Counted from the first letter of the stretch, positions 12,067 through 46,120 are shown. The stretch: DNA of 64,000 nucleotides from an uncultured Alphaproteobacteria bacterium (GCA_944393225.1 CALXZK010000006.1:10004-74003); one strand, 5' to 3'. The notes: generated by a model not told the origin, from the sequence alone. A program made the numbers and translations.

Positions 12067-12156
12067 AAAGTACACAATAAAAAACTTGTCAGATAAAAAT
12101 TTAAGGCATAATATTTTCTGTAGAAAAAATATTATTAACCCTTAAATATATGTCTT

Positions 12157-12318
12157 ATGAAAACATTTTTAATTTACCTTGGCATGCTGCTTTGCGCCGG
12201 GGGTATGTTTTATGGTCTATACAATGAAACATCAAGACCATACGTTATTATGTTCATTTTATTTACTTGGGGAGTAATGCTCCAAGAAATGAAAAAAGCA
12301 CCAACGATAGAAGACTAG
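12157..12318 (+). CDS. Small two-TM orphan protein (53 aa)
   Basis: Manual translation MKTFLIYLGMLLCAGGMFYGLYNETSRPYVIMFILFTWGVMLQEMKKAPTIED; promoter-like TTGTCA-17-CATAAT upstream and a hairpin directly downstream. Confidence 0.55.
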   Translation: MKTFLIYLGMLLCAGGMFYGLYNETSRPYVIMFILFTWGVMLQEMKKAPTIED

Positions 12319-24144: not shown

Positions 24145-24609
24145 ATGATTTTTCGCTCAATCATGAACACCCCTTGCGGAAACATCTTGCTTGAAGCCGA
24201 AAACGACCAATTAATCGGTTGCCGATTTATTTTTGCTTCATCAACCACAAATACCAATCAAGAAACCCCATTCTTACAAAATGTAAAAAAACAATTGGAA
24301 GAATATTTTTCCGGCACAAGAAAATCTTTTGATATTAAATTAGCTCCCGCAGGAACCGCTTTTCAACAAAGCGTATGGCAAGCCTTGCAAAAAATCCCTT
24401 ACGGACAAACAGCGAGTTATAAAGATATTGCTGAAAAAATTCATAATTCCAAAGCCTTCCGCGCCGTTGGTATGGCAAATAACAAAAACCCCATAGCCAT
24501 AATCATTCCTTGTCACCGCGTTATTGGAAGCAACGGCAAGTTAGTGGGCTATGCCGGAGGCTTAGATTTGAAACAACAACTTTTAGAATTAGAACAAAAT
24601 AACCTATAA
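24145..24609 (+). CDS. ogt: Methylated-DNA--protein-cysteine methyltransferase
   Basis: GTAFQQSVW, IPYG, RAVGMAN, active-site IPCHRV, GYAGG. Confidence 0.95.
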   Translation: MIFRSIMNTPCGNILLEAENDQLIGCRFIFASSTTNTNQETPFLQNVKKQLEEYFSGTRKSFDIKLAPAGTAFQQSVWQALQKIPYGQTASYKDIAEKIHNSKAFRAVGMANNKNPIAIIIPCHRVIGSNGKLVGYAGGLDLKQQLLELEQNNL

Positions 24610-24961: not shown

Positions 24962-25002
24962 AATACCCAAGGGTCCTAGGCTCCAATTCCACTCTCCTCA
25001 AC

Positions 25003-25031
25003 AAAAAAAGCCCGCTTTTGCAGGCTTTTTT
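25003..25031. terminator. Bidirectional terminator, probably the original tRNA-Ser terminator displaced by the island
   Basis: AAAAAAGCC-CGC-TTTT-GCA-GGCTTTTTT directly adjacent to the displaced tRNA 3' end. Confidence 0.7.
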
Positions 25032-25032
25032 A

Positions 25033-25040
25033 TGGCGGAG
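25033..25040 (-). repeat. att-site direct repeat (displaced tRNA-Ser 3' end CTCCGCCA)
   Basis: Identical to 46924-46931; only 8 bp, but placed exactly between a terminator and the first island sequence. Confidence 0.7.
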
Positions 25041-25086
25041 TAGTAAATCTCAACGGTATTAAGCATACTAAATCAAAAACACTCCA

Positions 25087-25224
25087 ATCCCAAATAACAG
25101 GGAATCTACAGGGAATTTCACTACGATTCTCTCCTCCATACCATCATGTTTACCTTGAATTACTTAGCTTACAAAAAAATCCCTCCCCAAATTATCAGGG
25201 AATTTAAAATTAAATACAGGGATA
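25087..25224 (+). repeat. Cluster of CAGGGA motifs at the island end
   Basis: ACAGGGAAT at 25097-25105 and 25108-25116, CAGGGAAT at 25196-25203, ACAGGGA at 25216-25222; inverted ATCCC half-sites at 25087 and 25179. Confidence 0.7.
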
Positions 25225-25303
25225 AGTATGTTTGTTTTTTTAATTCTTTTTTATATATTTCATAATATGACTATGTAAATAACTAACATTTTTTTATAAG
25301 CAA

Positions 25304-25909
25304 ATGAATGAAAAACATCTTAAATGTGCATTAATTGATTATCTTATGGAAAATTATCCAACGGCTCTTTTAATTGGCGTTGAAATTCCTTTTATCTCAA
25401 TGAGAAGACGAGTAGATGTTTTGATGATTACTGAAGAAAAACAATTAATTGCTTTTGAAATAAAGAGTGATCAAGACAATCTAACTCGTCTTAATGGGCA
25501 AATATCAGATTATAAAAAAACTTTTGATAAATTATATATTGTAACATCTAACAAATATAAAAATATTTGCAAAATGATACCTAATGGCATAGGTTGCCTT
25601 TATTGTAATGATCAAACTATAAAAATTCTTAGAGAATCCAAAACAATAAAACGCCTATCTAAAAAAAACTTATCATTTTTCATTCAGCAAAGTGATTTCC
25701 AGATGATGGGGTATAAAAATTTATCTATAATTGATGCAAGAAAAAAAATTATTAATTCCACTACTACTGATTTATTACGCAATTTTGCTATAAACAGTAT
25801 TTTAAAAAGATATTCAAAAAGATTTACACTTTTTAAGAAATATAAAGAAACAAAAACGTCTATCTCTGATCTTGATTATCTAACAAAGTCATTTGAACTT
25901 CATCTTTAA
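25304..25909 (+). CDS. sce7726/MmcB-like PD-(D/E)XK nuclease-fold protein
   Basis: E...RRVDVL...IAFEIKSDQDNLTRLNGQISDYKKTFDKLYIV. Confidence 0.75.
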   Translation: MNEKHLKCALIDYLMENYPTALLIGVEIPFISMRRRVDVLMITEEKQLIAFEIKSDQDNLTRLNGQISDYKKTFDKLYIVTSNKYKNICKMIPNGIGCLYCNDQTIKILRESKTIKRLSKKNLSFFIQQSDFQMMGYKNLSIIDARKKIINSTTTDLLRNFAINSILKRYSKRFTLFKKYKETKTSISDLDYLTKSFELHL

Positions 25910-26960
25910 ATTCAACAACATTTCTGCTTATATACGAATTTACTCTACAAGATATCCAATGAGATGGATTACTACCATTGGGATTTCCTTTAGATGCTAT
26001 ATTTATTTCATCATCCGCCCAAACTTGAAATTCTTTAATTGGTATATAGTTTTTGTCTTGAATAGTCATTTGTGCAGCAACTACATACCCTCCATCTTCC
26101 CGACGAAAGCGGTAATAATAAGCAAAACGATCATCAAAAAAATCTATTCTTGGAATCCATTGGCCTCCCGCTGTATCATATCTGATAGGGTGGACTGATG
26201 CATAATCAGATGGATAAATATTTATAAATTGTCCATATCGTTGCTTCAGCGAAATAAAAGTACTTTTTTCTAGACGGAGAAAATGCCCATATTTATCATT
26301 TCCATATTTAGTTACAGAATCAGGAAAACAAGAAAAAGCACACAATACTCCTAAAAATTTTTTATAACCAAAAACGCTAATTAGGTTTTGAAGTGTAGAA
26401 TCAAATACTTCTGAAGCATCTGAAGCAAATCTTCTACAATCAATAAATTTAGCATCGAGTATCAAGATTACATTAGAAAGAGAACAACTTTTTTGAATTT
26501 CTTGCAAATAACTTATGATATCTGGATCATCAATATCAACACGAAATGCTAAGTATTTAGAAATTTTTTGAAGTTCAGTGATTTCTGTTGCTACATCATC
26601 TAAAAAATACGGATTATAATGAATTACAGGAATGACTTTCAAATTTTTGTTCTTAAGCTCTGTTATTAAATTAATCCACTCTGGAAATCCACCTTTAGGA
26701 GAATTCAAAATATTTTTGATTTGATCATTTGTAAGCTGGGAATCTATAGAGAGATCCAAAATAAAAGGAGAATCTTTACACAATTCTTCTATTTTATCTA
26801 ATCTCTTATATATAGAACGATCAACATTTTTTGAACTTTTCCTTGACCTGGTTAATTCAAAAATTGGCAATATTTTTTCTTTTACATAAATATCTAAATG
26901 TTCGTACGCTTTCAATTCTGCATCTGTAGTTTTCAAAATTGGAAAATAAACATATCCCAT
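25860..26960 (-). CDS. Beta family protein (P4 beta / sce7725-like)
   Basis: N-terminal YFPILKTTDAELKAY...ILPIFEL, IPVI, SDYASVHP, PRIDF, YYYR, C-terminal WISCRVNSYI; 366 aa. Confidence 0.7.
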   Translation of the reverse strand: MGYVYFPILKTTDAELKAYEHLDIYVKEKILPIFELTRSRKSSKNVDRSIYKRLDKIEELCKDSPFILDLSIDSQLTNDQIKNILNSPKGGFPEWINLITELKNKNLKVIPVIHYNPYFLDDVATEITELQKISKYLAFRVDIDDPDIISYLQEIQKSCSLSNVILILDAKFIDCRRFASDASEVFDSTLQNLISVFGYKKFLGVLCAFSCFPDSVTKYGNDKYGHFLRLEKSTFISLKQRYGQFINIYPSDYASVHPIRYDTAGGQWIPRIDFFDDRFAYYYRFRREDGGYVVAAQMTIQDKNYIPIKEFQVWADDEINIASKGNPNGSNPSHWISCRVNSYISRNVVEFKDEVQMTLLDNQDQR

Positions 26961-26961
26961 A

Positions 26962-27522
26962 TTAATATCCTTTTAAATATCCTAGCTTATAAGCTCTATA
27001 ACGTACTGCTGCAGGCGAGACATTAAAATAATGAGCGATTTCTTCAATTTGATTTATTCCCTTTTTTATTATGTCGTTAAACTCATCTGCAGGCATCAAT
27101 AATTCTGCTGCAAATGTATTCGCCATTCGTTCAATTTTATCTGTAGAAGTATTCTCTCTAAAAAGAATAAAATCATTATGTTTCCCTCTTTCTTCTATTA
27201 ATTCTCTATCAAACAAGAGATGGCCAAGTTCATGAGCTGCTGTAAAACGCTGTCTGGTTTCATTTTGATATTTATTTATACCTATTGTCCATTCATCTTT
27301 TAATTCAATATAACCGGAAATATCTTCCATATCTTCATATATAATGGAGATATTATGCATTTTTAAATATGTAATAATATCGAATGGTATTGTTTCAACA
27401 CCCAAAGACTGAGCATATTTATAAATATCCTCAACATTTGTATATGAAAATATATCATTTTTGAAAAAATTACTTGTAGTTTTTTCTATCAATTTATATG
27501 GATTATTTCGCATCACAACCAT
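26962..27522 (-). CDS. ImmA/IrrE family zinc metallopeptidase (no N-terminal HTH)
   Basis: RQRFTAAHELGH (HExxH), ERMANTFAAELLMP, IAHYFNVS. Confidence 0.93.
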   Translation of the reverse strand: MVVMRNNPYKLIEKTTSNFFKNDIFSYTNVEDIYKYAQSLGVETIPFDIITYLKMHNISIIYEDMEDISGYIELKDEWTIGINKYQNETRQRFTAAHELGHLLFDRELIEERGKHNDFILFRENTSTDKIERMANTFAAELLMPADEFNDIIKKGINQIEEIAHYFNVSPAAVRYRAYKLGYLKGY

Positions 27523-27524
27523 TG

Positions 27525-28103
27525 TTATTCTTCCGGTATTGATATTACATCATCTTCATATGTTTTAGAGTTTTGTATACGCTCTAGTTGATTTTCTAAT
27601 CTTTCAATTTTCCTATTTATATCTTCAACTTGCGTTCCCTCTAAAGCCTCATCGACTCTCGCTCCAACTTTATTAGAAAATTTTACAGACTGAGTGTAAA
27701 TTTCAAAGTGATTATTAACTTCCTTTTCAATAAATTGTTTATTTTTTTCAAATTCTTCTTTTCCTAATGATCGAATATGGATATATCCTAATAAACCAGA
27801 AAGACCTATAAAAATACTTAAAATTGTAATAATTACAGTGTAAAAAGAACTTAACTCGGATATAATATCCGATAGAGGTACAATCTTATTTTTATTAACT
27901 AAATCTGCAATTACTTTTGTATCAGAAGGAATCTTTGTATTATTACAAACTATAATATGTTTATCATAAAAATCTAACAATGGTTCTTTAAATACAACAA
28001 AAAAAATAGATATAAAAAATATCACTACAACCAAAAAACCCAAAGCTCTTAACATCCCATCAATAAAGTAAGAGCATCTACATTTTCTATTATCTTTTTC
28101 CAT
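27525..28103 (-). CDS. Hypothetical two-TM membrane protein with coiled-coil C-terminus
   Basis: Two hydrophobic segments; GAGG SD; 2-bp gap to the peptidase gene. Confidence 0.7.
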   Translation of the reverse strand: MEKDNRKCRCSYFIDGMLRALGFLVVVIFFISIFFVVFKEPLLDFYDKHIIVCNNTKIPSDTKVIADLVNKNKIVPLSDIISELSSFYTVIITILSIFIGLSGLLGYIHIRSLGKEEFEKNKQFIEKEVNNHFEIYTQSVKFSNKVGARVDEALEGTQVEDINRKIERLENQLERIQNSKTYEDDVISIPEE

Positions 28104-28212
28104 AAAAAAACCTCTTGTTGTAATAAAATATTAATCTTAAAATCTCAAAATTCAATATAATTTTATACCTTATATACTCTCATCAAAAATCAATAAAACA
28201 GCCATCTCTTCA

Positions 28213-31200
28213 TCACTCCCCGACGACTTTCATAAGATCTTCGTAGGTTTCGACGACTTCATACTTAACGCTATCGGAGCTAATTGCGGCAAAGTGTTTT
28301 CTGGCGCAGGCAATTTTAGATTTTTCAACCCCTCTTAATTCCAGCTCTAAGTTCTCCATATTTCCTTTAGTTTCTGCTACAAAGTAAATATGTTTGACAC
28401 TTCCCTTATTGAAGGCAATAGCCCAATCGGGGTTATATTTTCCGACCGGAGTAGAAATATAAAATCCTCGAGGCAGCTTTGCATAAACAGCAACTTCTTC
28501 AGCATGCTCCAAAGAATTGGCCATATTTTTCTCTGTCTTAGCACTAGAATCCGCAATAACATGGCTATAAATATGTTTATTGGGTGTCGGGACGGTATTT
28601 TCCAAGCTGCCTTTGAGTTTGGGCTCGGTAAAGACATTCATATCATAAGTTTCCGTAATCCGATCATACTTAATCTCTTCTACAATCGCTGTAGCCTTTT
28701 GCTCATTGATGATATTGGCCGCTCGGGTGATAAATTCTTCCGGATTTGCCTCAAACAGCTTAAATCGGCTTTCTTTTATGCCTGACATTATCTGTGCCAG
28801 AGTTTTTCTGGTTAATCCGGTAAGTTGAACCAACTTATCTAACAAGTCATATTTTACGGAAGTATATTTTCCAACTTGAATTGCTTCTCTGCGTTCGGAG
28901 GTAAAGCCAAAGGCTTCTCCTTTTTCGGCTTGTTGTTTATCCAACTCATCCATTTGTCCGGTTCTAATAACAGCAACCGTTTTACTGACATAAAGTTTTT
29001 CATCTAAGGCATAAATTGCCTTTTTTATCAACTCATCACTGTCAAATACCACGCGATAGGTTGATTTAACATTGATTTTATTCCACAAATCTTGAAATTC
29101 TTGCTGATGAAGTTTTTTATCATTAAGCTTAACCTCAACCACCTGATTGCGTGCATTATCAATTTTGACCGGCTTATAAATTGTTTCAATAACCTTGATA
29201 ATTTCGGCACTATCATATCCTTCAATCGGCTTAAATGTACCGGCCTCAACATCATTATGGTATTGTTCGGTTAATTTACCGCGTTTGACATAACCATTAG
29301 CAATCAAGCTCTCATAAATATCCTGAGATTTTTCTTTATCAACCAGTTGTCCATCAATAGTTCTATTTTCAAACAATTCGGCAGAAATGCTCCGCGGCCT
29401 ATCATGCATTGCATCGGCAATATCGGTTTGCAGATTAGAAACAAAATCTTCATAAGATTCACTGGCAATAACCGTTAGTTGGTTAACTTCTTGAACATCA
29501 TCACCCAAAACACTTTCATCCATACGCTCGCCGTTTTGATTGACCGACAAACGTAAACCGCGGCCAATTTCCTGACGACGAGAAGTATTGTTGTAACTTT
29601 GCTTTAACGGGCAAATCTGAAAAACGTTCGGATTATCCCATCCTTCACGCAAGGCTGAATGTGAAAACAGAAAACGCACCGGCTCGGATAAATTCAAAAG
29701 TTGCTCTTTGTTTTTCATAATCAAATCATAAGCATCAACATCATCTGAGCCGACAGCGTTTCTTTTTACTTCGGAATCCTTAAATTTTTTGCTTTTCTTA
29801 TCTATTGAAAAATAACCCTTATGGCATTTTGTGGCATCGGTATTTTCAATAAATTTTCGATAATTCGGATTAAAATCAAGCTCTGCAAGATAGCTTTCTT
29901 TAATATTGTTATATTCTTCTTCAAAGATTTTGGCATAAATACCGTTAGCCTCTCCGGCATCATTAGAAAGCCTATAATTTGCCACTTCATCAATAAAGAA
30001 CAAAGACAAGACTTTAATTCCGCTTTCCAGCAAAACTTGCTCACGTTCAAAATGGCTTTGGATAGTCTCTCTGATTTGAATGCGCCGCAACTGTTCTTCA
30101 GTTGTGCTGCCGACCACATCTCCGGCAAAAAGCTCGGTTCCATTTTGGAAAGTAACCGAGTTGGAGCGACCATCAATATGTGTAATCAACCAACCATGGC
30201 GATATTCATCCAACTGTCCGGATAAATCATAAAGATTATCCCCTTCATCACAATTCCTGATTTTTTTGACAATGCCGGATTTTCCCCGATAATCAAACTC
30301 CAAACGGGCCGTCGGATTTTTGTTTGCCGAAACATTTATTCCGGCCAAATAAGCATAGCCGCCGGTTGCGCTATCTCCGACCACGGAAATTCCCTTAACG
30401 GCAATCTTTTTGACCAATTTTTTATTATAGGCATCTTGGGCATCCAAGCGATAGATGATATTTTTGTTCAACTCTGGCGGCGTAGCCGAATAACTGATAC
30501 GAAACAAAGGATTAAACCTTTTAATTGCTTTTTGAGTAACGGCATCGGCAGTTCTGCCCAAAGACTGAGGCTCATCCAAAATCAAAATCGGATTTGTTTT
30601 GGCAATCACATCAATAGGTTTGCGCCATTTGAAGCTTTCTTGAGGATTGAAAATTATTTTAGACTCTTTGCTTTTTCCATCTTCTTTGAGTGAGGCGGCA
30701 AAAGCCTGCGAATTGATAATCATCACCCTGATTTTGCTATCTGTGGCAAAGGTTTCAATCTCATTCAAGTTCTGAGAATTATATACAAACTCCATAATAG
30801 ACTTATGATATTCTTGCTGAAAATGCTTGCGTGTATTTTCAAAAGACTTTTTTACCCCTTCCCGAATAGCCACACTCGGCACAACAATAATAAACTTCGT
30901 CCAACCATATAAATAGTTAAGCTCATAAATTGTTTTAATGTAAGTATAAGTCTTACCAGTTCCGGTTTCCATTTCTATAGTTAGGTTAATATCATCGCCA
31001 ACTTTTCCGCTAGGCTTTAGCCCCAGCGCAATTTGCTTTTTGTGAATATTGTCCCAAACTTCTCTTTCAGGAATAAGCAACGGACTATTGGCAAAAGCAT
31101 CTTGCTCAAAAGAGGTTTGCGTATTTTTAACATCTTTTCCGGGATCCAAGATATAACGTGTTGGTTTGGATTTTGGCTGTCCGGCAAAGATATCACAAAC

Positions 31201-31263
31201 CGCGTTGCAGGCATCTATCTGAAATTGCTGATGCTTAAATTTGAGTTCTATTTTTGCCGACAT
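28213..31263 (-). CDS. res: Type III restriction-modification system Res subunit
   Basis: METGTGKT, DEPQ, SAT, LREGWDNPNVFQIC, QEIGRGLRL, C-terminal YNPDWA...VAETKG nuclease motif. Confidence 0.95.
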   Translation of the reverse strand: MSAKIELKFKHQQFQIDACNAVCDIFAGQPKSKPTRYILDPGKDVKNTQTSFEQDAFANSPLLIPEREVWDNIHKKQIALGLKPSGKVGDDINLTIEMETGTGKTYTYIKTIYELNYLYGWTKFIIVVPSVAIREGVKKSFENTRKHFQQEYHKSIMEFVYNSQNLNEIETFATDSKIRVMIINSQAFAASLKEDGKSKESKIIFNPQESFKWRKPIDVIAKTNPILILDEPQSLGRTADAVTQKAIKRFNPLFRISYSATPPELNKNIIYRLDAQDAYNKKLVKKIAVKGISVVGDSATGGYAYLAGINVSANKNPTARLEFDYRGKSGIVKKIRNCDEGDNLYDLSGQLDEYRHGWLITHIDGRSNSVTFQNGTELFAGDVVGSTTEEQLRRIQIRETIQSHFEREQVLLESGIKVLSLFFIDEVANYRLSNDAGEANGIYAKIFEEEYNNIKESYLAELDFNPNYRKFIENTDATKCHKGYFSIDKKSKKFKDSEVKRNAVGSDDVDAYDLIMKNKEQLLNLSEPVRFLFSHSALREGWDNPNVFQICPLKQSYNNTSRRQEIGRGLRLSVNQNGERMDESVLGDDVQEVNQLTVIASESYEDFVSNLQTDIADAMHDRPRSISAELFENRTIDGQLVDKEKSQDIYESLIANGYVKRGKLTEQYHNDVEAGTFKPIEGYDSAEIIKVIETIYKPVKIDNARNQVVEVKLNDKKLHQQEFQDLWNKINVKSTYRVVFDSDELIKKAIYALDEKLYVSKTVAVIRTGQMDELDKQQAEKGEAFGFTSERREAIQVGKYTSVKYDLLDKLVQLTGLTRKTLAQIMSGIKESRFKLFEANPEEFITRAANIINEQKATAIVEEIKYDRITETYDMNVFTEPKLKGSLENTVPTPNKHIYSHVIADSSAKTEKNMANSLEHAEEVAVYAKLPRGFYISTPVGKYNPDWAIAFNKGSVKHIYFVAETKGNMENLELELRGVEKSKIACARKHFAAISSDSVKYEVVETYEDLMKVVGE

Positions 31264-31551
31264 TACACAAATTCCTCATATAAATCATTAAAATTAGGAT
31301 TTTCTTTTATAATTAAATTAATTTTCCAATCTCTGTGCCAATTTTTTAATTGCTTTTCGCGAGCGATTGCATCAGTTAAAAGATCATATTGCTCTACATA
31401 AACCAGCTTATGTACACTATATTTTTTTGTAAAACCATCTATCAAATTATTTTTATGCTCAAACACACGTCGAATAATATCATTAGTTACACCTATATAG
31501 AATGTGGAATTAGTTTTATTTGTCATAATATAAACATATCCTTTTTTTCAT
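31263..31551 (-). pseudogene. Stand-alone GIY-YIG nuclease, frameshifted just after the start codon
   Basis: GYVYIMTNK...FYIGVTNDIIRRVFEHK...FTKKYSVHKLVY...AIAREKQLKNW. ATG at 31551 (AAGG SD) is followed by A7; A6 would be in frame. Confidence 0.75.
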
Positions 31552-31646
31552 TTAACCTTCCACAACTCAACATACAACAATATGCTTCAAAAAGCAGGAT
31601 TCACCATATAAGACAGCGGTACAGCCATTATCTCGAACGGCATAAC

Positions 31647-31710
31647 CGTCATCCCGAACTTGTTTCGGGATCTCTTTTCCACCGGATGCTGAAACAAGTT
31701 CAGCATGACG
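31647..31710. repeat. CGTC-tagged REP-like inverted doublet
   Basis: CGTCAT-CCCGAA-CTTGT-TTCGGG-ATC ... GAT-GCTGAA-ACAAG-TTCAGC-ATGACG. Confidence 0.85.
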
Positions 31711-31724
31711 AAGCGACAACAACA

Positions 31725-33677
31725 TTACATTACCCTTACATTATCTTTGGCTTGTTTATCATCCCAATGGCAGATGGTTTTGAAAATTTCAAACATATTG
31801 ATTTTTTCATCATCTTTTTCAAAACAAGAATCTCTAAATACCACACGTGTTGGGTTGAGTTCTGCCATTTTGGTGATGGTTGCGGTGCTAACATTTCTAT
31901 CAAAACAAGCAACCAAATCATTGTCACCGACAATATGAATGGTATTCTCGCCCACTTTAACCTCTTGCAGCGGCAAAGAGAGAGAAACACCCCATTCCAC
32001 CATAACCCCAAACAACAAATCGAGCGGAGTGCGATCGGCTTTGATATTATCAATACTGCTTAACAAATCGGCTTGTTTGAGCTCGCTTGGTTTGTAATAT
32101 ACATCTTGCATATTAGAATCATCAACCTTCAAAACCCTAAAACCGATATCCAAATCTGTTTTTCCGGTTTCCTGCACGATTTTATCACCGGCACGGCGAA
32201 TACGTTCTTTACCAATTTCACAAATATTTTTGTAACCAGCTTTATAGGCTTCTGATTTTTCATCAGTTTCTTCCGGTAGTTGCACCATAATAAACTTGCG
32301 ATTACCACCATCTTCAGCATTCAGTTGCATAACAGCATGAGCAGTTGTTGCCGAGCCGGAGAAGAAATCAAGGATTATAGAATCTCTATTAAAATGCGTA
32401 GCAGAGTTTACTAATTCTTTAATATAATTTACAGGTTTAGAATAATTAAATAGATTCTTTATAGAGAAAAGTCTTTCAAGTTCTTCATATGCATCTTCAT
32501 TAGTCCCTTTTATAGAAATTCCATTAATAAAGCTACTAAATCCTTTGAAATTATCTTCGTCGTATATACGAAAAACACGAATTTGAAAATTTAATGTGTT
32601 GATTATAAATTTTGCGCCTTGAGAAAGTTGTTCATTCAGCATTTGTTGAGACCATACAAATGGAGCTTTCATTTTTAATTCATCTACTATTTTTCCATCT
32701 TTGACTCTAATATCATTTAATAACTCCACTGGATTAATTTCATCACCATATACGCCAGCCTTATACATTCCATCACTTAATTTCGTATAAATTGTATTGC
32801 TTGGTATGCTCAATATTGATGATTTATTAGTTCTTTTAATTATAGGTTGTGATTCTGATGAATCTGCTGTTCCACCATATAATCCTACAGTTTTCCCTCT
32901 ACACTTAGTATACACCAAAACATATTCCGTAAGACTTATAATTCCCTTGGAAAGAAAGCTACCTTTTCTTTTTTTGGTCCAAGTTATAATTCCATAACCA
33001 TTATCTTCGCCAAAAACCTCATCACAAATCTTTTTGAGGTTGGCAACTTCGTTGTCATCAATAGAAATAAAAATCACGCCATCATCGGTTAACAAATCAC
33101 GAGCCAGTTTCAAACGCGGATACATCATAGAACACCAGTCCGAATGGAAACGTCCGCTTGATTCCGTATTGCGGACAAAAGACTTGCTCAACAAGCGGTT
33201 GTCCTCTTCATCAAACAAATCTATCCCTTGGTTCATTTCTTCTTTAGACTGCACCCGATTATCATGATAAACAAAATCATTTCCGGTATTATACGGCGGA
33301 TCAATATATATCATCTTGATTTTGCCCAAATAACCTTCTTCCAAAATTTTGAGCACTTCCAAGTTATCACCCTCAATATAAAGGTTTTCGGTTGCATCCC
33401 AATTTTTACTTTCCTCTTTGCAGGGGCGCAAAGTTTTGCGAATAGGCTTGTTAGCCTCCACCATAGCCGCATTTTTGCCTACCCACTTAAACTCATAGGT
33501 CTCGCGTGCATTTTCATCCACCACATCGGCTAGTTCGGCCTTTAAACGCTCAAAATCTACCTTGCCGTTTTGGACTGCCGCCGGACAAAGCTCTGCCACT
33601 TTGGCCAAAACCTTATCATAAGGCTTTGCCTCCATTCCAAGCTTTTCAATTTTTATGTCTGTTGTTTCCTTACTCAT
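31725..33677 (-). CDS. mod: Type III restriction-modification system Mod subunit (N6-adenine methyltransferase)
   Basis: NLYIEGDNLEVLK, IYIDPPYNTG, LDFFSGSATTAHA; AAGGAG SD before ATG 33677. Confidence 0.95.
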   Translation of the reverse strand: MSKETTDIKIEKLGMEAKPYDKVLAKVAELCPAAVQNGKVDFERLKAELADVVDENARETYEFKWVGKNAAMVEANKPIRKTLRPCKEESKNWDATENLYIEGDNLEVLKILEEGYLGKIKMIYIDPPYNTGNDFVYHDNRVQSKEEMNQGIDLFDEEDNRLLSKSFVRNTESSGRFHSDWCSMMYPRLKLARDLLTDDGVIFISIDDNEVANLKKICDEVFGEDNGYGIITWTKKRKGSFLSKGIISLTEYVLVYTKCRGKTVGLYGGTADSSESQPIIKRTNKSSILSIPSNTIYTKLSDGMYKAGVYGDEINPVELLNDIRVKDGKIVDELKMKAPFVWSQQMLNEQLSQGAKFIINTLNFQIRVFRIYDEDNFKGFSSFINGISIKGTNEDAYEELERLFSIKNLFNYSKPVNYIKELVNSATHFNRDSIILDFFSGSATTAHAVMQLNAEDGGNRKFIMVQLPEETDEKSEAYKAGYKNICEIGKERIRRAGDKIVQETGKTDLDIGFRVLKVDDSNMQDVYYKPSELKQADLLSSIDNIKADRTPLDLLFGVMVEWGVSLSLPLQEVKVGENTIHIVGDNDLVACFDRNVSTATITKMAELNPTRVVFRDSCFEKDDEKINMFEIFKTICHWDDKQAKDNVRVM

Positions 33678-35244
33678 CGCGGCTCCTTTTAACGGTTTGA
33701 TATTTTTGATTTGGGTGATTTGGTATATCAGGGTGAGTTTGTTCAAGAACACCTAGATTAATTAGCGGATATAAAATATTTTGCAAGAAATAAGACTTAT
33801 TACTATATTTCATAATTGCCATTATTTCTGTTGTTTTTAAAGGTCTCTCGCAAAGTTCCAGCACCTTACGACCTTCATCGCCAATTAAGTCCAGTATCTT
33901 ATCCATAGGCAACTGTTGAATACTGCTGGCAACTGTGTCCCTAACTGTATCAGTAGGTGTGTCACTAACTGTGTCACTAGCTGTATCACTTGTCGGGCTA
34001 ACTGATTGATTTTGAGTCGCCGACTGAGCCATTCTATCTGACTCGGCTACTTGATCACTGGCGGTATTAAACAAGTTTATGGGCCAATCAAGTTTAAAGA
34101 CCTCTCCATCAGTTAAAGTTGGAACATAGCCGGCATAAATCCTTGCATATTTTGCAATTTTACGAATTCCTGAACCTAACTCCTCAGCCAGTCCGATCTC
34201 TTTAAAAAACTTTGCAATATTAGGATTTTTAGTATATGGGGTACTTGTATCTGGGTTTATATTTCCGCAGATATAGGGTTTGTTGCCATTTTCAGTATAT
34301 ATTCTGTCATGCTCAATCACCAATTTTGCCGGATAATGGTTGGTAAACTCCCGGTGCATCAATAAATTTACACTAATTTCTCGAAACAGTATGTTTCTTA
34401 GATCTCTGCGAATTCCATCCGATGTATCCATATAAAATGGTGATGGCAAATGTTTATTTACAAAAGCCATTATCCGCTCATAGCTTTCTATCAAATTTGT
34501 TCGCACATCATCTCTATCATCATATCTTTCAGAATCTTTAACTCTTAATATGAGATCTGTCTTATAATGCGGCAAAATAGACTGAATTACCTCGTCTTTT
34601 CCCAAAATCAAAGCGCATGCCAGTGTATATCCTTCTTTCTGCGAATTAAAATCTTTCTTATGCAGACCGGCACTGCGTAATAATTGTTCGTTATTTAGGT
34701 CTTTCCAGGGGTGATCCGGTTGTCTATTAACAGCCATTGTCCGACAACGTTCTATTAAATCAACACGCAAATCATCCATTGTAATCCCAGGAAAAATTTC
34801 ATTTTCAGAATAAGTTTTTTCCTTATTAACATATAATTGAGCTATCTGAGAATGATTATGCGTTATATCGCGGTCACCATCATCTGTGCGGATATAAACT
34901 TTACCTCCCGCATAATGGACTTCTGAACTAGCGGGAACCAAAATATACAAAATAACCTTATCATCAATTTCAACCTCTTTACACTCTAAATACAAAGGAG
35001 GATGAACCTTAGAAATATTACTGATTGTATTGGCAAAATCACGTTCTATTTGAGGCAATAAGTCACGGTTAATGCCTAAAATATTTCCATTATCAGCAAC
35101 ACCCAATAAAATTTCGCCGCCTTGCGTATTAGAAAAGGCACAAATTGTTTCATAAATATTTTTAGGCAAGCCGCCTTGAGCTTCCTTGAATTCAACTTTT
35201 AAACCCTCACCTTGGGCTATTAATGCTCTTATTTTTTCTATCAT
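33670..35244 (-). CDS. Schlafen/AlbA_2 domain + HATPase_c_4 + winged-helix protein
   Basis: EGLKVEFKEA...ETICAFSNTQGG.ILLGVADNG, NLLMHR, NPNIAKFF...EELGSG, C-terminal PNHPNQKY. Confidence 0.88.
   Translation of the reverse strand: MIEKIRALIAQGEGLKVEFKEAQGGLPKNIYETICAFSNTQGGEILLGVADNGNILGINRDLLPQIERDFANTISNISKVHPPLYLECKEVEIDDKVILYILVPASSEVHYAGGKVYIRTDDGDRDITHNHSQIAQLYVNKEKTYSENEIFPGITMDDLRVDLIERCRTMAVNRQPDHPWKDLNNEQLLRSAGLHKKDFNSQKEGYTLACALILGKDEVIQSILPHYKTDLILRVKDSERYDDRDDVRTNLIESYERIMAFVNKHLPSPFYMDTSDGIRRDLRNILFREISVNLLMHREFTNHYPAKLVIEHDRIYTENGNKPYICGNINPDTSTPYTKNPNIAKFFKEIGLAEELGSGIRKIAKYARIYAGYVPTLTDGEVFKLDWPINLFNTASDQVAESDRMAQSATQNQSVSPTSDTASDTVSDTPTDTVRDTVASSIQQLPMDKILDLIGDEGRKVLELCERPLKTTEIMAIMKYSNKSYFLQNILYPLINLGVLEQTHPDIPNHPNQKYQTVKRSRDE
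33931..33990. repeat. Degenerate 12-bp tandem repeat encoding an (S/T/R)DT(V/A/P) linker
   Basis: Encodes SDTA-SDTV-SDTP-TDTV-RDTV inside the AlbA_2 protein. Confidence 0.65.
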
Positions 35245-35867
35245 AACTCTTCCTTTAGGGACTTTATCATAGACTTAATTTCTAACTTTTTCTTTAACTG
35301 CGGCTCATTATTCATCTTATTTTCAAGTTGCTCTATCTTTTTTGCGATTTTTTCTTGCTCTATACTTCTTGAAACCTTTTCTTTGAGCCCCTTTTCTGCA
35401 TTGTCTTCAATTTTGCCACCGCTTATTTGCTTAATCAGACTTTCATAGATGGCATCAATGCTTCCTCCTTCTATATCAAGAGAAATCTCTTTTTGCCAAT
35501 TACTTGTCCATCTCTTAACAATGCTGATATTGTCTTTGTTTTTATCTTTATAAGCAATACTAAGGCAATATTTTCCATCAAATTCCAAAACAAACAAAAC
35601 ATATGCTGCGCGAATGCTTTTATCCATTAAATCTAAAAGTTGTGTATTGCATACTCGTCTTTTTAATACAACTCTTAAAACCATTATTTCTGGAAAGATA
35701 CTTCCTTCCTTAACATTTAAGCTTCGTGCCGAGAACTGATTTGTAGCCATAATTTTGGCAACATCATTAGTCATTGCCGTTTTTAAAGAGGTCGAAAATT
35801 CGCCGTATTTATAAAATTTTTCTTTGGCAATAAATTTATTGGGAAGCTCCGTCGACTTTGGAAACAT
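35241..35867 (-). CDS. DUF4391 domain protein
   Basis: MFPKSTE...FIAKEKFY, EIMVL, DAIYESLIKQI, C-terminal IEQLENKMNNEPQLKKKLEI; typical position between SNF2 and mod. Confidence 0.8.
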   Translation of the reverse strand: MFPKSTELPNKFIAKEKFYKYGEFSTSLKTAMTNDVAKIMATNQFSARSLNVKEGSIFPEIMVLRVVLKRRVCNTQLLDLMDKSIRAAYVLFVLEFDGKYCLSIAYKDKNKDNISIVKRWTSNWQKEISLDIEGGSIDAIYESLIKQISGGKIEDNAEKGLKEKVSRSIEQEKIAKKIEQLENKMNNEPQLKKKLEIKSMIKSLKEEL

Positions 35868-38800
35868 TTATTTTTTACTCCCATAAACTTCTTCGTCAGA
35901 CTTCAGTACAACAAAACAAATCAACTCAAAATCATCCAAACCCTTGATTTCACCTTGTCCAAAAGTGCTACTGCCATCTGAAAATAAACTATCGACCTCG
36001 GATTCGTCTTTAACTTGAATAATTGATTGAATAGCTTTTCCCAACAAATCGGAATATTTGCTCATGTCCATTCCGTCTTTGGTTTGTTTATTAAACAAAG
36101 CACAACGACTTTTATCCGGCGTTGAAAAGCCCTTGCACACCAAGCGCATATAACTCAACAATTTGTGAGGCTCCAAATGATTATACTGCACAGTCCCGTC
36201 ATCTTTCATATAAACCATGTAAAACGGGTGTAACCTGTTTGGATTATCAATATCTCTGACATTGTTAACATTTCTCAAGATATAAATAACCCCCGGAGGC
36301 AGACCATCTCCGGCAGCCATGGCAACGGCATGCATGCCCAGCGGAGCTTTTTCAACATCATCATGGTGTTTTTTATATTCAACCAAATCCAAACGAAATT
36401 CATTTAACCCCAAATCCATGATATTGACACCACCAGAAATATCTTCGGGATCAACAACCTCTTTTTGTAATTTTTCCAGCTGTTTTCTGCGGTACTCCAG
36501 ATCTCCTTTTTCGGTTATATCAATCGGATTATCCTCACCAGTTGAGGTCATAACCGTAATTTTCATACGAGTTTCAACACGATTTTTAAGGTTAATATAT
36601 TCGTCTAACTTAATGTTTGGCCAAAAGTTAACCAATTGAATTTTATCATTTTGACTGCCAATTCGATCGATTCGGCCAAATCTTTGAATAATTCTAACCG
36701 GATTCCAGTGAATATCAAAATTAATCAGATAATCGCAGTCTTGAAGGTTTTGTCCCTCTGAAATACAGTCTGTGCCAATTAGAATATCAATATCCCCATC
36801 GGGAATTTTATTTAACTTATTACGATCCTTTGAAATGGGTGAAAAACAGGCCAAAACAGTATTAAAATCAGCGGGCATCTTATCAATGGTTGTTTTTCCA
36901 TCTGTTGAGCCGGTAACCATAGCCGTATTTAGCCCAAGTTCATTTTTAATAATCTTGCTAAGATTGTCGTACAAATATTCTGCCGTGTCTGCAAATGCTG
37001 TAAAAATCAAGACTTTTTTATTGCCATCATTTATCGGATGTTTAATTTTGTTGCGAACGACCTCCAATAATGTCTGGAGTTTTTTGTCTTTTTCCGGAGT
37101 TATGGTCGATACCTCTAATAACAAATGCTCCAAAATCTCCTTATCGGTATTTAAATCAACTCTCCATGCTCGATAATCCATATCCTTAAAATCAAGCTGA
37201 TATTTACCACCTGCAGAAATCAAATCAGATAATTCACCATCAAAATCCAATTCTATTTCATCGGAATAGGTACTACATGTCTTGTTTTTTTCATAATTAT
37301 CAATTGCCGAAATAGCTTTTTGAATTTGCTCAAGAATTTTTGAGGTTGTAATTCTAAAAGAATAAACCGAACTTTCTAAACGCTTAAGCAAATTAACAGC
37401 CATCAACTGTTTCAAACCAAATTCTCGTCCGGCCAAAGAAATACCCATTTTACCGCGTTTGCCATATTTGCTTTCATATTTAGCTAAACGACTGGGAAAC
37501 AAATAAGATGATGGACTATAAACAGATAAGTTTAGGCTTTCCAAAGATTTAAAAATCTCTTCATAGCTTATATTTGTATTATCTGCCAATGATGGAGACT
37601 TGTTAATGGGCGGCAATCTGGTCGGAAACTTACCAATTTCGGTCATATCATAATATTTTTCGATATGTTTGCGGCTTCTGGCGATGGTTACGGAATCCAA
37701 AACTTCAAAAAAGTCAAAGTCAAGTTCGCTTAATAGCCGCTCAGTTGTTCGTTCTTCTGTGGGTAATTTGCTCCATAGATTAAAGGCTCTTTGCGCATTG
37801 TTAAAAATCGTTGATAGGGGTTTTTGAGTCTTCAATTTTTTATTTAATTCATCTTCAACACCTTCGTATGCCAGTTGCAACTGATTTTTTAGATCAACAA
37901 ACCGATTATTGACCGGAGTAGCAGAAAGCATAAGAACTTTTGTTTTTACACCCGATTTAATAACATTTTTCATCAATGTTGCATAGCGGTTAAAATGCTC
38001 AAGCCCGTCTTCATCCGTTGTTACCAATGAGCCGTTGCGGAAATTATGGCTTTCATCAATAACTACGAGATCATAGTTACCCCAATTAATAAGAGATAAA
38101 TTTACCCCATTTGTATAGCCACTTTCACGAGATAAATCCGTATGAAACAATACATCATAACGAAGTCTGTCATTAATAAGGGGATTATTCTGATAATTTC
38201 CCTTATAATTCATCCAGTTATCAGAAAGTTTTTTAGGACAAAGGACCAAAACATTTTTATTTCTATTTTCATAATATTTGATAACCGATAATGCCGTAAA
38301 AGTTTTACCCAAACCAACACTATCGGCCAAAATACAGCCATTAAACTTTTCTAGCTTATGAATAATTGCCAGTGCTGCATCTTTTTGAAAAGAATATAAC
38401 ATATTCCAAACTTGGCTATTTTTAAAACCTGTTGCTTCGTTAGGGATGTTATCCTCTATATCTTCCAAAAACTCGCTAAATATATGATATAGCGTTATCA
38501 TATAAATAAATTCCGGAGAATTCTCTTCATAAACAAGCTCTATATGCTCCAAAACCTGCTCGGTTACATCTTTCATATGCTCTTTGTCATTCCAAACTTC
38601 CTCAAAACCTTTAATATATTGCTTGGTGTATGGAGCAGGTATTTTCATAGTCATTTTAAATATATCATTTCCACGTTCACTTCCTAAATCAACCGTAGTG
38701 AAACCATCAAGAGGCATATATGTATAATCTTCATTAATATTTAAAAAGCCGACAATTCCGCGCGTTGCTGATATATTTGATTTAAATTTAACTTTATTTC

Positions 38801-39125
38801 TTATCCATTCGGCACATTCTTTAGAAATTGCTTTTTGTGTCATCTGATTTCTCAGGCGAACCTCAAACTCAGTACCATATAAACTCTTCTCTCTGTTTAA
38901 TCTTGGGATATAAAACTCTCGCTTTTCCTTTTCTATCTTATCACCTAAAAAAGCCGGACTGGTAAAAATAAAACGCAACTCATCAATTTTATTGAGCTGT
39001 TTCTTTAAGCTTTCATAAGCATAGATGGAAAAACAAGATGCCGCTATGGATAATTTACTTCCTGATTTGATTTCCTCTTTCAGATCATCAACTAATCTTG
39101 TTGTCCTATTATCAAACTGTTGCAT
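35868..39125 (-). CDS. SNF2-family (SF2) helicase associated with Type III RM
   Basis: ILADSVGLGKT, VIDESHNFRN, MLSATPVNN, TDCISEGQNLQD, WNPVRIIQRFGRIDRIG. Confidence 0.92.
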   Translation of the reverse strand: MQQFDNRTTRLVDDLKEEIKSGSKLSIAASCFSIYAYESLKKQLNKIDELRFIFTSPAFLGDKIEKEKREFYIPRLNREKSLYGTEFEVRLRNQMTQKAISKECAEWIRNKVKFKSNISATRGIVGFLNINEDYTYMPLDGFTTVDLGSERGNDIFKMTMKIPAPYTKQYIKGFEEVWNDKEHMKDVTEQVLEHIELVYEENSPEFIYMITLYHIFSEFLEDIEDNIPNEATGFKNSQVWNMLYSFQKDAALAIIHKLEKFNGCILADSVGLGKTFTALSVIKYYENRNKNVLVLCPKKLSDNWMNYKGNYQNNPLINDRLRYDVLFHTDLSRESGYTNGVNLSLINWGNYDLVVIDESHNFRNGSLVTTDEDGLEHFNRYATLMKNVIKSGVKTKVLMLSATPVNNRFVDLKNQLQLAYEGVEDELNKKLKTQKPLSTIFNNAQRAFNLWSKLPTEERTTERLLSELDFDFFEVLDSVTIARSRKHIEKYYDMTEIGKFPTRLPPINKSPSLADNTNISYEEIFKSLESLNLSVYSPSSYLFPSRLAKYESKYGKRGKMGISLAGREFGLKQLMAVNLLKRLESSVYSFRITTSKILEQIQKAISAIDNYEKNKTCSTYSDEIELDFDGELSDLISAGGKYQLDFKDMDYRAWRVDLNTDKEILEHLLLEVSTITPEKDKKLQTLLEVVRNKIKHPINDGNKKVLIFTAFADTAEYLYDNLSKIIKNELGLNTAMVTGSTDGKTTIDKMPADFNTVLACFSPISKDRNKLNKIPDGDIDILIGTDCISEGQNLQDCDYLINFDIHWNPVRIIQRFGRIDRIGSQNDKIQLVNFWPNIKLDEYINLKNRVETRMKITVMTSTGEDNPIDITEKGDLEYRRKQLEKLQKEVVDPEDISGGVNIMDLGLNEFRLDLVEYKKHHDDVEKAPLGMHAVAMAAGDGLPPGVIYILRNVNNVRDIDNPNRLHPFYMVYMKDDGTVQYNHLEPHKLLSYMRLVCKGFSTPDKSRCALFNKQTKDGMDMSKYSDLLGKAIQSIIQVKDESEVDSLFSDGSSTFGQGEIKGLDDFELICFVVLKSDEEVYGSKK

Positions 39126-40083: not shown

Positions 40084-41395
40084 ATGGACAATTCATTAAT
40101 TATTGAAAATATAAACCTTACTTCGTTAAAAACATATCATAACAATGCCAAAGTACATAATGAAGAGCAGCTTCAAGCCTTAGCTTCGTCAATTAAACAA
40201 TTTGGCTTTAATTCCCCCATTTTGATTGATGAGAAAAACGAAATCATTGCCGGGCATGGCCGATTAGAAGCTGCCAAAATTGTCGGATTGACAGAAGTTC
40301 CTGCCATCAGGCTAACTCATTTGTCTGAAGCTCAAAAACGCGCATACCGTCTTGCTGATAACAAAATTGCTGAAAAAGGCGGATGGAATGAAGACATTCT
40401 CAAACTTGAACTTTCTGAGTTAGAAAGCCTGTGTAATGATTTTGACATAACGATCACCGGTTTTAGTTCTGTCGAGTTAGATGTGTTGCTTGATGATACC
40501 GGCAATTCACATAAAATTGATAAGCAGCTTAACACTGATCCTTTTGTTCCTGAAAATGAAATAATTACGCAGCCAGGAGATATTTGGCACCTTGGCAATC
40601 ATCGGATTATCTGCGGCAATTCTCAAGATGAAGAAACCTTCTCAAAATTGATGCAAACTCAAAAAGCAAAGATGGTTTTGCAAGATCCTCCTTTTAATGT
40701 TGCCATTAACGGACATGTTTGCGGAAGCGGCAAAACCAAGCATAAAGAATTTGCTTTTGCCTCTGGTGAAATGACTGATGATCAATTTATCAAATTTTTA
40801 GAAACAAACTTCAGACTTTGCGCCTCTTTTTCACAAGAAGGCTCTCTTCACTATAACTTTATGGACTGGCGACATATTCTTCATATATCGGTTGCAGGAA
40901 AAAATGTTTTTGACTCACTGATTAACCTTTGTGTGTGGAACAAAGGAACTGGCGGCATGGGCAGCTGCTACAGAAGCGCACATGAACTCTGCTTTATTTT
41001 CTAAAAGTCACACTAATAATGTTGAGCTTGGCAAAAATGGTCGCTACCGAACAAATGTTTGGAATTATCCCGGAGTAAATAGTTTTGGTCGTCATCGACA
41101 AGACTTAAAAATGCATCCTACAGTAAAACCAGTAGAAATGCTTTATGATGCTATTTTAGATGTAACCAAGCGTGGTGATTTAGTTTTAGATTCGTTTTTA
41201 GGTTCTGGCTCAAGTTTAATCGCTGCCGAGAAAGCACACAGGATCTGCTATGGCATTGAATGCGAGATGCTTTATATCGATACCACAATCAGACGTTTTC
41301 AAAATATCTTCAAGATTGATGCTGTCCGTGAAAAAGACGGTAAGACATACAATCAATTATTGGAAGAACTAAAATCAGGAGACACTCATGACTAA
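40084..41395 (+). pseudogene. ParB/Srx N-terminal domain + N4/N6 DNA methyltransferase fusion, frameshifted near 41000
   Basis: Frame 1: SIKQFGF...IIAGHGRLEAA...AYRLADNK, DPPF, HELCFIF*. Frame 2 continues KSHTNNVELGKNGRYRTNVW...HPTVKP...DSFLGSGS. Confidence 0.85.
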
Positions 41396-41768
41396 TAAGA
41401 CTTATGATGTTGGCTATTGCAATCCACCACAACATTCCCGCTTTCAGAAAGGGAAAAGCGGCAATCCTTCAGGGCGTCCTAAGCACAGCCGAAATACGTA
41501 TAAGCTATTGGAAGATATTTTGGAGCAGAAGGTTTCAATCGTCCAAGATGGTAAGCAAATCAAAATTTCAAAAAAGGTAGCGATTCTTTTGCAGGCGGTC
41601 AATTCTGCGGTTAAAGGCGATACAAAAGCCATTCGCGATTTATTTCCTCATTTGTTGGCTGTCGATGCCAAACAAGAAGAGAAAGAACAAAAAAGAGCTT
41701 CACTTAAAGCTGATGATTTAAGCATAATTAATAATTTTTTGCAAAATAAGGAGACCGGAAATGGTTAA
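41388..41768 (+). CDS. DUF5681 domain protein (small-terminase-like)
   Basis: YDVGYCNPPQHSRFQKGKSGNPSGRPK...AVKGDTKA. Confidence 0.8.
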   Translation: MTNKTYDVGYCNPPQHSRFQKGKSGNPSGRPKHSRNTYKLLEDILEQKVSIVQDGKQIKISKKVAILLQAVNSAVKGDTKAIRDLFPHLLAVDAKQEEKEQKRASLKADDLSIINNFLQNKETGNG

Positions 41769-42252
41769 ATTTAAAGTAGATAAATTACTCAATTTTTTAG
41801 AACAAATAAGTCACAATGCTTCCTCTCCAAAGCAACTACTGCAAAATCTTGCAAAAGATTTCCGGTCGTTAAGCTCAGAAGAACAAAAAGATTTTCAGCA
41901 ATTATTGCTTGATATGCTTGATAAAACTTGCAGTTTTAAAAAGATAAAAATTGCTCAGGATGCCGAAAGTAAAGTAAAAAGACCTGAATTTCCTAAAGAC
42001 ATTTTTGAAAAATTGCTTTGGGAATTACAAGACAAACCATCTGAATATATTGAACCTCGGCTGGAGATGATGCGAGCTTGTCTTTCTTTTCCATCGGGCA
42101 AACAATCTAAAACAGCATCAAGCGCCATTCAAGAAATGAAGTTGAGCTTATCTCACAAAGGTTTTTCATTGGCTAAAAAACGCAACGTCTTCTTAAGATG
42201 TTTGTATGAAACATTTTTACTTCAGGAGCTGTACAATGATATCGATGAATAA
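41761..42252 (+). CDS. Hypothetical helical protein
   Basis: AAGGAG SD; overlaps both neighbouring genes. Confidence 0.65.
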   Translation: MVKFKVDKLLNFLEQISHNASSPKQLLQNLAKDFRSLSSEEQKDFQQLLLDMLDKTCSFKKIKIAQDAESKVKRPEFPKDIFEKLLWELQDKPSEYIEPRLEMMRACLSFPSGKQSKTASSAIQEMKLSLSHKGFSLAKKRNVFLRCLYETFLLQELYNDIDE

Positions 42253-43762: not shown

Positions 43763-43818
43763 TAAAACTTGACTTAAGACAATGAAAGAGCCTTCATGCA
43801 ACAATATGGAGGCTCTTA

Positions 43819-46088: not shown

Positions 46089-46120
46089 TTTTTTTTAATA
46101 TATTTATAACATAACACTAT

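Follow-up and report, generated by a model that had tools for sequence, protein, structure and literature searches.

At positions 25304–28103 of a 64,000-nucleotide stretch of DNA from an uncultured Alphaproteobacteria bacterium (GCA_944393225.1, CALXZK010000006.1:10004–74003; hereafter the window) lies a compact cassette of four intact open reading frames (ORFs), which a first-pass annotation had put forward as a candidate defence system. Three of the genes occupy the minus strand and follow one another closely: a 192-amino-acid two-transmembrane (2-TM) protein (27525–28103), a 186-amino-acid zinc metallopeptidase of the M78 (ImmA/IrrE-type) family (26962–27522) and a 366-amino-acid beta-family protein (25860–26960), the first two separated by 2 bp (27523–27524) and the last two by 1 bp (26961). 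Running towards them on the plus strand is the gene for a 201-amino-acid nuclease of the cII, or sce7726, family (25304–25909), which meets the beta gene tail to tail over a 50-bp segment (25860–25909) that encodes both C-termini. On the beta side this segment corresponds to residues 351–366, beyond the Pfam match (residues 5–347), and the last four residues of beta are of low confidence in the predicted structure. The ORF listing bears out the spacing of 1–2 bp and the convergent overlap that the first-pass annotation had described, and its four family calls (a two-transmembrane protein, an ImmA/IrrE peptidase without a helix-turn-helix (HTH) domain, beta and sce7726) agree with Pfam, NCBIfam and hydropathy.

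The beta protein matches the Pfam family Beta_protein (E value of 1.5e-39) and, with PADLOC results given here and below as individual hidden Markov model matches for each protein, the models beta (3.7e-46) and, over its full length, PD-Lambda-2_C (1e-18). A tblastn alignment with beta of phage P4 (4e-20) takes in 97% of the query at 27% identity, and the family numbers 346 representatives at E ≤ 1e-3. The structure predicted from a 66-sequence alignment (predicted local distance difference test, pLDDT, of 96.3; predicted template modelling score, pTM, of 0.94) consists of eight strand–helix units followed by a β-hairpin (residues 271–284) and three helices, and beta is accordingly predicted to form a (β/α)8 triosephosphate isomerase (TIM) barrel. 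A Foldseek search of the PDB with this model returned 50 matches at E ≤ 1e-3 (best 1.3e-4, with template modelling scores of 0.30–0.43), and the top matches listed are glycoside hydrolases, triosephosphate isomerases, an aldolase and designed TIM barrels.

Invariant in beta are E15, D69, W95, P213, D252, Y292, W314, W335, I336 and R339. Located at or just past the strand ends of the barrel are E15, E35, R40, D69, R140, D169, D252 and Y253, all invariant or nearly so. TIM-barrel enzymes carry their active sites at the strand ends, and the position of these conserved residues therefore speaks for an enzyme more than for an antitoxin that acts passively. We presume beta to be a negative regulator or sensor, possibly one with enzymatic activity.

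The convergent nuclease matches the PADLOC model cll (2e-31), NCBIfam sce7726_fam (3.5e-28) and Pfam MmcB-like (5.2e-6). As the cll model was built on P4 cII, the window protein is identified by its sequence as a P4 cII homologue, and the RefSeq label of P4 cII, ‘sce7726 family protein’, gives the same answer to a question that the first-pass annotation had left for checking. Six residues (E27, D38, E52, K54, D58 and Q66) are invariant in 27 homologues, and the E-D-ExK motif is intact. The predicted structure (pLDDT of 94.9) has its best PDB fold match in 3dnx (8e-6), with further matches to restriction endonucleases and related nucleases (PaqCI, XisH, SfsA and NucS), and the model thus points to a PD-(D/E)xK restriction-endonuclease fold; the cII profile gave zero matches among PDB sequences.

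Lying between the membrane protein and beta is the M78 peptidase, which matches Pfam Peptidase_M78 (3.3e-26) over residues 56–177. No HTH domain was matched in it by Pfam, and it has no C-terminal sensor domain. Its PADLOC matches are to capP (5.8e-33), to RmrA models (1e-10 to 1e-14) and to PD-Lambda-2_B (1.6e-4), the last only at profile positions 292–372 of 402. The HExxH motif is intact, and H97, E98, H101 and E131 are invariant in 23 aligned members of the subfamily. The nearest solved relatives are CapP (PDB 7t5t, 2.2e-14) and IrrE (PDB 3dte, 8.7e-10), both of about 290–300 residues. A complex predicted for the peptidase with residues 105–192 of the membrane protein scored 0.00 in a run made without controls, a value that counts neither for nor against an interaction.

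The first gene of the operon, in the slot held by gop in P4, encodes a short basic N-terminus, a transmembrane segment (about 17–38), a loop of ~45 residues, a second transmembrane segment (about 85–108) and a C-terminal part comprising an 80-residue helical, coiled-coil-like region and, last, an acidic tail. The two hydrophobic segments (residues about 10–46 and 80–110) were called with an in-house Kyte–Doolittle window script at a threshold of 1.6, with no dedicated predictor. No match above noise was found for this protein in Pfam, PADLOC, NCBIfam or PHROG; a search of the ESM Atlas gave unnamed clusters only, with recognition under the usual level. The family is rare, with 5 clusters matched in 5.8 billion in a word-indexed search. 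Pattern scans yielded 49 matches in genome contigs and 374 in viral contigs, none of them confirmed; as relatives were later found by way of the peptidase and beta, these blank scans reflect narrow patterns and not absence of the family.

We considered whether the membrane protein is a diverged Gop and rejected this. The PADLOC gop model, which recognizes P4 Gop at 4.8e-70, has no match to the 192-residue protein at E ≤ 1, and an hhalign comparison of 10 of its relatives with 10 Gop-family sequences gave a probability of 0.5%. Gop itself is a narrow family of 26 matches, and wherever a match carries the name of an organism, this belongs to Enterobacterales or Aeromonas. Higher similarity is observed with a second, shorter clade of 2-TM proteins found at the same position (profile probability of 89.9%, E value of 1.7e-6, covering the second transmembrane segment and the region before it), a similarity that could be partly compositional.

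Gop, the gop-slot protein of Pasteurella phage Pmp11 and the window protein have a common plan, in which a hydrophobic N-terminal part is followed by a coiled-coil-like helical region and an acidic end. At the threshold of 1.6 the script finds two segments in the window protein, one in Gop and none in the Pmp11 protein, and the second transmembrane segment of Gop and of the Pmp11 protein is what we read from their sequences. By analogy, the 192-residue protein is a putative membrane effector. An acidic tail rich in glutamate and aspartate ends the first-gene proteins of all three families, namely Gop, that of the window and the shorter second one (window 27525–28103; L001 247–648; L004–L009; L044, L070, L080 and L082), although Gop has no detectable homology to the other two; the tail may act in all of them as a site of recognition or modification.

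The arrangement seen in the window recurs elsewhere. In a pooled set of 53 beta loci besides that of the window, which are not independent and include near-duplicates (for example, L088/L089/L091), a uniform re-scan found the order membrane protein–peptidase–beta in 19, with a convergent cII in 15 of these 19. Across the whole set cII is convergent in 41 of the 53 loci and overlaps beta in 32 of the 41, by 4–135 bp; the beta/cII pair of Rac-SA53 overlaps by 41 bp. Convergence is hence the ancestral or canonical layout of the family. The idea that a convergent overlap is peculiar to the window locus was accordingly rejected, and the novelty implied by the first-pass annotation is not supported. 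Genomes that are unrelated share this gene order, which places the arrangement beyond chance; co-occurrence of the four genes, on which the earlier proposal had been made to depend, is found.

Samples drawn in different ways give different views of this layout. Starting from the peptidase, an alignment of the 23 closest sequences led to 80 genome loci, in which phmmer against the ORFs found beta directly after the peptidase in 12, the peptidase only in 66 and no ORF-level match in 2. Where the peptidase is most similar, in six loci from a goat-colon alphaproteobacterial metagenome-assembled genome (MAG), Bradyrhizobium, Chelativorans, a Muribaculaceae MAG, Prevotella CAG:1031 and Porphyromonas catoniae, membrane protein, peptidase and beta always come in the window order; three of the six have a convergent cII that overlaps beta, one has a co-directional cII, and in two it was undetected. 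The P. catoniae cII (L008, 7435–8058) is co-directional and directly downstream of beta, without antisense overlap. At another of the 12 loci with beta after the peptidase (L033), beta appears to be split, with a 174-residue N-terminal part at 6376–6900 after the peptidase and a fragment at 12086–12283, ~5 kb further on; the unrelated ORFs between the two parts are probably an insertion.

Beginning instead from Pfam PF14350, 10 of 401 evenly drawn genomes of the phylum match, the window's own included. The other nine hold 11 beta loci, of which 7 have a peptidase directly upstream, 6 have a convergent cII and 4 have a 2-TM protein with a short peptidase (1 of the window clade, 3 of the second clade). 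The distribution among relatives is that of an accessory element: beta was found in 2 of 41 related genomes, and among 12 genomes of the window's genus in none. One genome of the window genome’s family (G021) holds two beta cassettes, L085 and L086, both with a convergent cII: one reads membrane protein–short peptidase–beta–cII, and the other, L086, resembles PD-lambda-2 (a 107-residue HigB-like protein, a 382-residue HTH-peptidase, beta, and cII overlapping by 95 bp).

In viral contigs, where 26 loci were drawn by their likeness to the window beta, all four genes are present in 11, one is cut by the contig end after the peptidase and one is without cII; a small 2-TM gop-slot protein takes their place in a further 11 (8 of which match the Gop profile) and 2 have neither. 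Among annotated phages only five records match (three of P4, Pmp11 and Rac-SA53), all of types other than the peptidase-bearing one, and an annotated plasmid collection gave two weak records. In three IMG/VR contigs (L092, L094 and L102) the four-gene cassette stands between genes that, from their N-terminal sequences, resemble those of phage tails or baseplates, which would suggest a prophage hotspot akin to those of P2 and P4.

The phylogeny of beta follows the genes upstream of it. The tree, a quick IQ-TREE run with Shimodaira–Hasegawa-like approximate likelihood-ratio test (SH-aLRT) support, comprises 40 rows, leaving out the near-copies L089, L091 and L100, the broken L033 and the later-fetched L113–L124. 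A branch with 99% support sets apart 19 rows, comprising all 12 gop-linked ones, the five of the second 2-TM (mem2) clade and two without a small transmembrane gene. All rows of the window layout are on its opposite side, together with the HigB-type/Rac pair, and the sister of the window beta is the goat-colon MAG locus (99%). Architecture labels require 8 changes on the tree, where the minimum is 7; shuffled labels required 20.3 on average, and 0 of 200 shuffles were as low. These labels enter L065 as ‘peptidase only’, a locus at which the uniform scan, made later, revealed a membrane ORF of the second clade. Beta proteins of the window layout thus cluster apart from the gop-linked ones, and phylogeny tracks upstream architecture.

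The cassette is the most AT-rich block of the window and stands at the end of a defence and mobile island; the first-pass annotation had noted it as the island’s most AT-rich part, at its distal end. The three 1-kb bins at 25–28 kb have guanine-plus-cytosine (GC) fractions of 0.274, 0.296 and 0.276, the lowest in the window, with the remaining 61 bins at 0.306–0.442. Since the GC content of the cassette is ~8 points under that of the rest of the island, it suggests that the cassette was acquired separately. On its other side lies the core gene ogt (24145–24609); this left boundary of the island was set by composition and gene content only, and no direct repeat of at least 13 bp from the tRNA-Ser region was found near 25 kb.

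Adjoining the cassette on the island side is a minus-strand run of defence genes (28213–39125). It begins with a Type III restriction–modification system, made up of a restriction endonuclease of 1016 residues (PADLOC REase_III, 2.6e-276) and a methyltransferase of 675 residues (MTase_III, 3.3e-202). These are followed by a Schlafen/AlbA_2-HATPase_c_4 protein of 524 residues, a DUF4391 protein of 208 residues and an SNF2-family helicase of 1085 residues (PADLOC ‘HKD+Snf2’ C3a139, 3.1e-117), which look like a separate helicase-based system. At 40084–47015 are a ParB_N-like gene, a gene resembling the terminase large subunit (Terminase_6C, 2.5e-6), a large serine recombinase (44451–46088; Resolvase, 2.2e-40) and, adjoining these at the far end of the island, tRNA-Ser (46924–47015). 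This segment looks like the mobile backbone of the island, a satellite or remnant prophage. Near-identical DNA, sharing at least half of the sampled words, occurs in 12 sequencing runs from four studies, every run having chicken-gut, bird or simply ‘metagenome’ as its label; the window’s own source may be among these runs. No RNA run was listed for 25200–28250.

Upstream of the membrane-protein gene is an AT-rich intergenic region (28104–28212), the presumed promoter region of the minus-strand operon. It contains a single weak sigma-70-like match (28183–28154, 9 of 12 positions), which is not evidence of a promoter because the region scores fewer promoter-like matches than its own shuffles (11 against a shuffled mean of 20.3), and none is claimed. 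Between cII and the core genes, the intergenic stretch (24962–25303) contains a terminator-like, GC-rich hairpin with flanking runs of A and T (~25005–25032) and, at ~25100–25230, a CAGGGA(A/T) motif in four copies, which could be recombinase or regulator sites.

Two relatives of the cassette have been studied experimentally. In Escherichia coli the gop-beta-cII locus gives protection from lambda and P1, and gop becomes toxic when beta is absent (Rousset et al. 2022, PMC9122126, citing Ghisotti 1990); a phage accessory gene, orf184, is described as triggering cell death through gop-beta-cII (bioRxiv 2023.04.06.535777). PD-lambda-2 is reported to comprise a HigB-like A, an Xre-HTH-peptidase B and a P4-antitoxin-like C, where B alone is toxic and A rescues from it, and where C is needed for defence and is not needed for neutralizing B (PMC9519451). 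A recent computational survey (bioRxiv 10.64898/2026.10.19.760177, 22 Oct 2026) renames Beta_protein TIM-B in its section on ‘TIM-B systems’. That section describes a second family of 2TM effectors, separate from Gop, a metallopeptidase that may or may not carry an HTH domain, flanked by the effector on one side and TIM-B on the other, and a restriction-endonuclease gene that is overlapping and convergent. It ties TIM-B to deazaguanine transglycosylases and proposes that TIM-B represses the effector by an activity of the nucleobase-transfer type, with proteolytic derepression added.

It is well supported that the window cassette is a horizontally acquired anti-phage member of this beta/TIM-B family, whose tested kin are gop-beta-cII and PD-lambda-2, and equally well supported that its subtype is that of a 2-TM protein, an M78 peptidase without an HTH domain, beta and a convergent, overlapping cII. 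As to how it might work, we propose that the three tightly spaced genes are co-expressed and that the 2-TM coiled-coil protein would be a membrane-damaging abortive-infection effector, acting in the role of Gop. The beta TIM barrel would keep this effector off in uninfected cells, perhaps by way of an enzymatic product or a modification and not by simple binding, and the block would be released when a phage factor disturbs beta. The peptidase would add a second, proteolytic licensing step; as there is no HTH repressor for it to cut, its substrate is most likely to be a protein of the cassette, namely beta or the membrane protein, the latter in its cytoplasmic tail. The protease-gated abortive infection that the first-pass annotation had suggested is likewise a hypothesis. 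The convergent cII nuclease may serve as a second effector, coupled to the operon through the overlapping 3′ ends, probably antagonistically. Taken as a whole, identity and mechanism together, this is the best explanation overall, its mechanism drawn by analogy with the relatives, and one in which we place moderate confidence.

Several observations weigh against this scheme. Toxicity of the membrane protein is an analogy, because the protein has no detectable homology to Gop. PD-lambda-2, where toxicity lies with the peptidase protein, the first gene neutralizes it and beta is dispensable for this, fits poorly with a toxin encoded first and beta as its antitoxin. No deazaguanine transglycosylase is among the Foldseek matches listed for beta, and the beta sequence profile has no match among PDB sequences. 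In loci of the window type cII is undetected in 3 of 19 and co-directional in 1 of 19, and antisense coupling is for that reason not obligatory. No experimental study of the 2-TM and peptidase form was found in the literature searched.

A further version of the proposed mechanism, which we advance tentatively and think rather doubtful in all its parts together, is that the minimal, HTH-less M78 peptidase cuts no transcription factor and directly processes a cassette protein, whether the 2-TM effector in its cytoplasmic coiled-coil or acidic tail or the beta barrel. The cassette would then be a protease-licensed membrane pore with a TIM-barrel enzyme as its gate and an antisense-coupled nuclease as its fallback. 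If true, this would be a post-translational switch of the ImmA/IrrE type acting on an effector and not on a repressor.

The assignment of effector and regulator could also be the reverse, with the peptidase as the toxic effector, the 2-TM protein restraining it or anchoring it at the membrane, and beta and cII sensing the phage. The PD-lambda-2 report is in keeping with this, as its HTH-peptidase, overexpressed by itself, is toxic and the gene upstream brings rescue (PMC9519451), and the TIM-B survey allows that the metallopeptidase may stand ‘as an alternative effector’ (bioRxiv 10.64898/2026.10.19.760177). The invariance of the active site in the 23 subfamily members points the same way, as does the presence of a peptidase at 7 of the 11 loci of the phylum-wide sample, where it is more constant than any single effector. 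Loci of the gop type, however, function without a peptidase; the peptidase always has a variable first gene on one side and beta on the other, as would be expected of a regulator and not of a payload; and its solved kin, CapP and IrrE, are specific switch proteases. We therefore regard a toxic peptidase as unlikely.

A role as an addiction module, in which the cassette would mainly be a toxin–antitoxin unit stabilizing the mobile island with no significant part in phage defence, appears improbable. In its favour, the pair gop/beta was first described as toxin/antitoxin-like (cited in PMC9122126), the cassette stands at the edge of an integrative element, and its very low GC content marks a separate acquisition. 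Against this, both tested relatives protect against phages (PMC9519451 and PMC9122126), a Type III restriction–modification system lies directly beside the cassette within a cluster of defence genes, and close kin occur in prophage and viral contigs, the usual place for superinfection-exclusion genes.

That the locus should be two independent neighbours, a Rosmerta-type pair of membrane toxin and peptidase and a separate beta–cII pair, is very improbable: the peptidase does match RmrA models at ~1e-14 and beta–cII pairs without an upstream partner exist (Rac-SA53 and L103/L111), but the genes are only 1–2 bp apart, their order is fixed in 19 loci across different phyla, the beta phylogeny tracks the upstream architecture, and the window peptidase lacks the HTH domain of RmrA just as the membrane protein lacks a match to RmrT.

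With membership in the beta/TIM-B family as the preferred identity, the cassette belongs to a family with two experimentally validated defence systems and an unsolved mechanism. The peptidase-bearing 2-TM subtype may be among the commonest forms of this family, accounting for 11 of the 26 viral-contig loci, drawn by likeness to the window beta, and for 4 of the 11 loci of the phylum-wide sample when both 2-TM clades are counted. Comprising four small genes with recognizable active sites, the cassette is a compact test case, suited to asking what the beta barrel does, what an ImmA-type protease targets where there is no repressor, and whether a dual-coding overlap couples two effectors. For the window itself, the analysis securely annotates a defence cassette within the mobile island of a bird-gut bacterium.

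Compared with the repressor-cutting systems CapP/CapH, IrrE/DdrO and ImmA/ImmR, the cassette has the same M78-type catalytic domain, and CapP is the best match of its peptidase both in PADLOC and in the PDB. It differs in having no HTH repressor ORF in or beside it and no genes of the cyclic-oligonucleotide-based anti-phage signalling system (CBASS) within it, and its peptidase is ~100 residues shorter than CapP and IrrE, without their C-terminal domain. Rosmerta likewise has a toxin-like first gene followed by a gene with an M78 domain. Its RmrA is a fusion of HTH and peptidase of 360–400 residues, whereas the matches of the window protein to it cover the peptidase part alone, and no RmrT model matched the window membrane protein or its 9 relatives. 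To our knowledge, Rosmerta as PADLOC defines it has no beta or cII component.

With PD-lambda-2 of E. coli (Vassallo et al. 2022) the cassette shares a beta-like third gene (the PD-Lambda-2_C match at 1e-18) that comes after a variable first gene and one for an M78 peptidase, and a convergent cII is also found at the PD-lambda-2-like locus L086 of the relative’s genome. The first gene differs, encoding a 2-TM protein instead of a HigB-like one and having no PADLOC or Pfam toxin match, and the peptidase is without the Xre HTH domain. P4 gop-beta-cII (‘gop_beta_cll’ in PADLOC and DefenseFinder) is similar in having homologous beta and cII proteins, a co-oriented operon meeting a convergent cII (in record NC_001609, gop, of 133 residues, and beta are on one strand and cII is convergent), a small first gene whose product has an N-terminal membrane part and a helical C-terminal part, and a location on mobile elements and in defence hotspots. 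The window has no Gop homologue and has an additional M78 peptidase between the first gene and beta; its cII is of 201 residues against 264 in P4, and its 3′ ends overlap by 50 bp where P4 has a 27-bp gap and a terminator. Gene order relative to P4 confirms the earlier placement of the membrane protein and peptidase in the gop position.

Among the systems closest to the cassette are the TIM-B systems of the survey, compared here through the text description in the preprint, to which the comparison of the exact four-gene combination is limited. Matched by that description only, the 192-residue protein is probably the ‘2TM-B’ family. The link to transglycosylases is absent from the fold matches listed for the window beta. 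The TIM barrel, the metallopeptidase in the middle and the convergent, overlapping restriction endonuclease are all present in the window, and the beta model likewise comprises a barrel with a C-terminal hairpin and helices. What the first-pass annotation read as a hybrid architecture is a recurrent layout that the preprint puts into words (10.64898/2026.10.19.760177), and the cassette is a typical member of this computationally described subtype, not a new kind of system.

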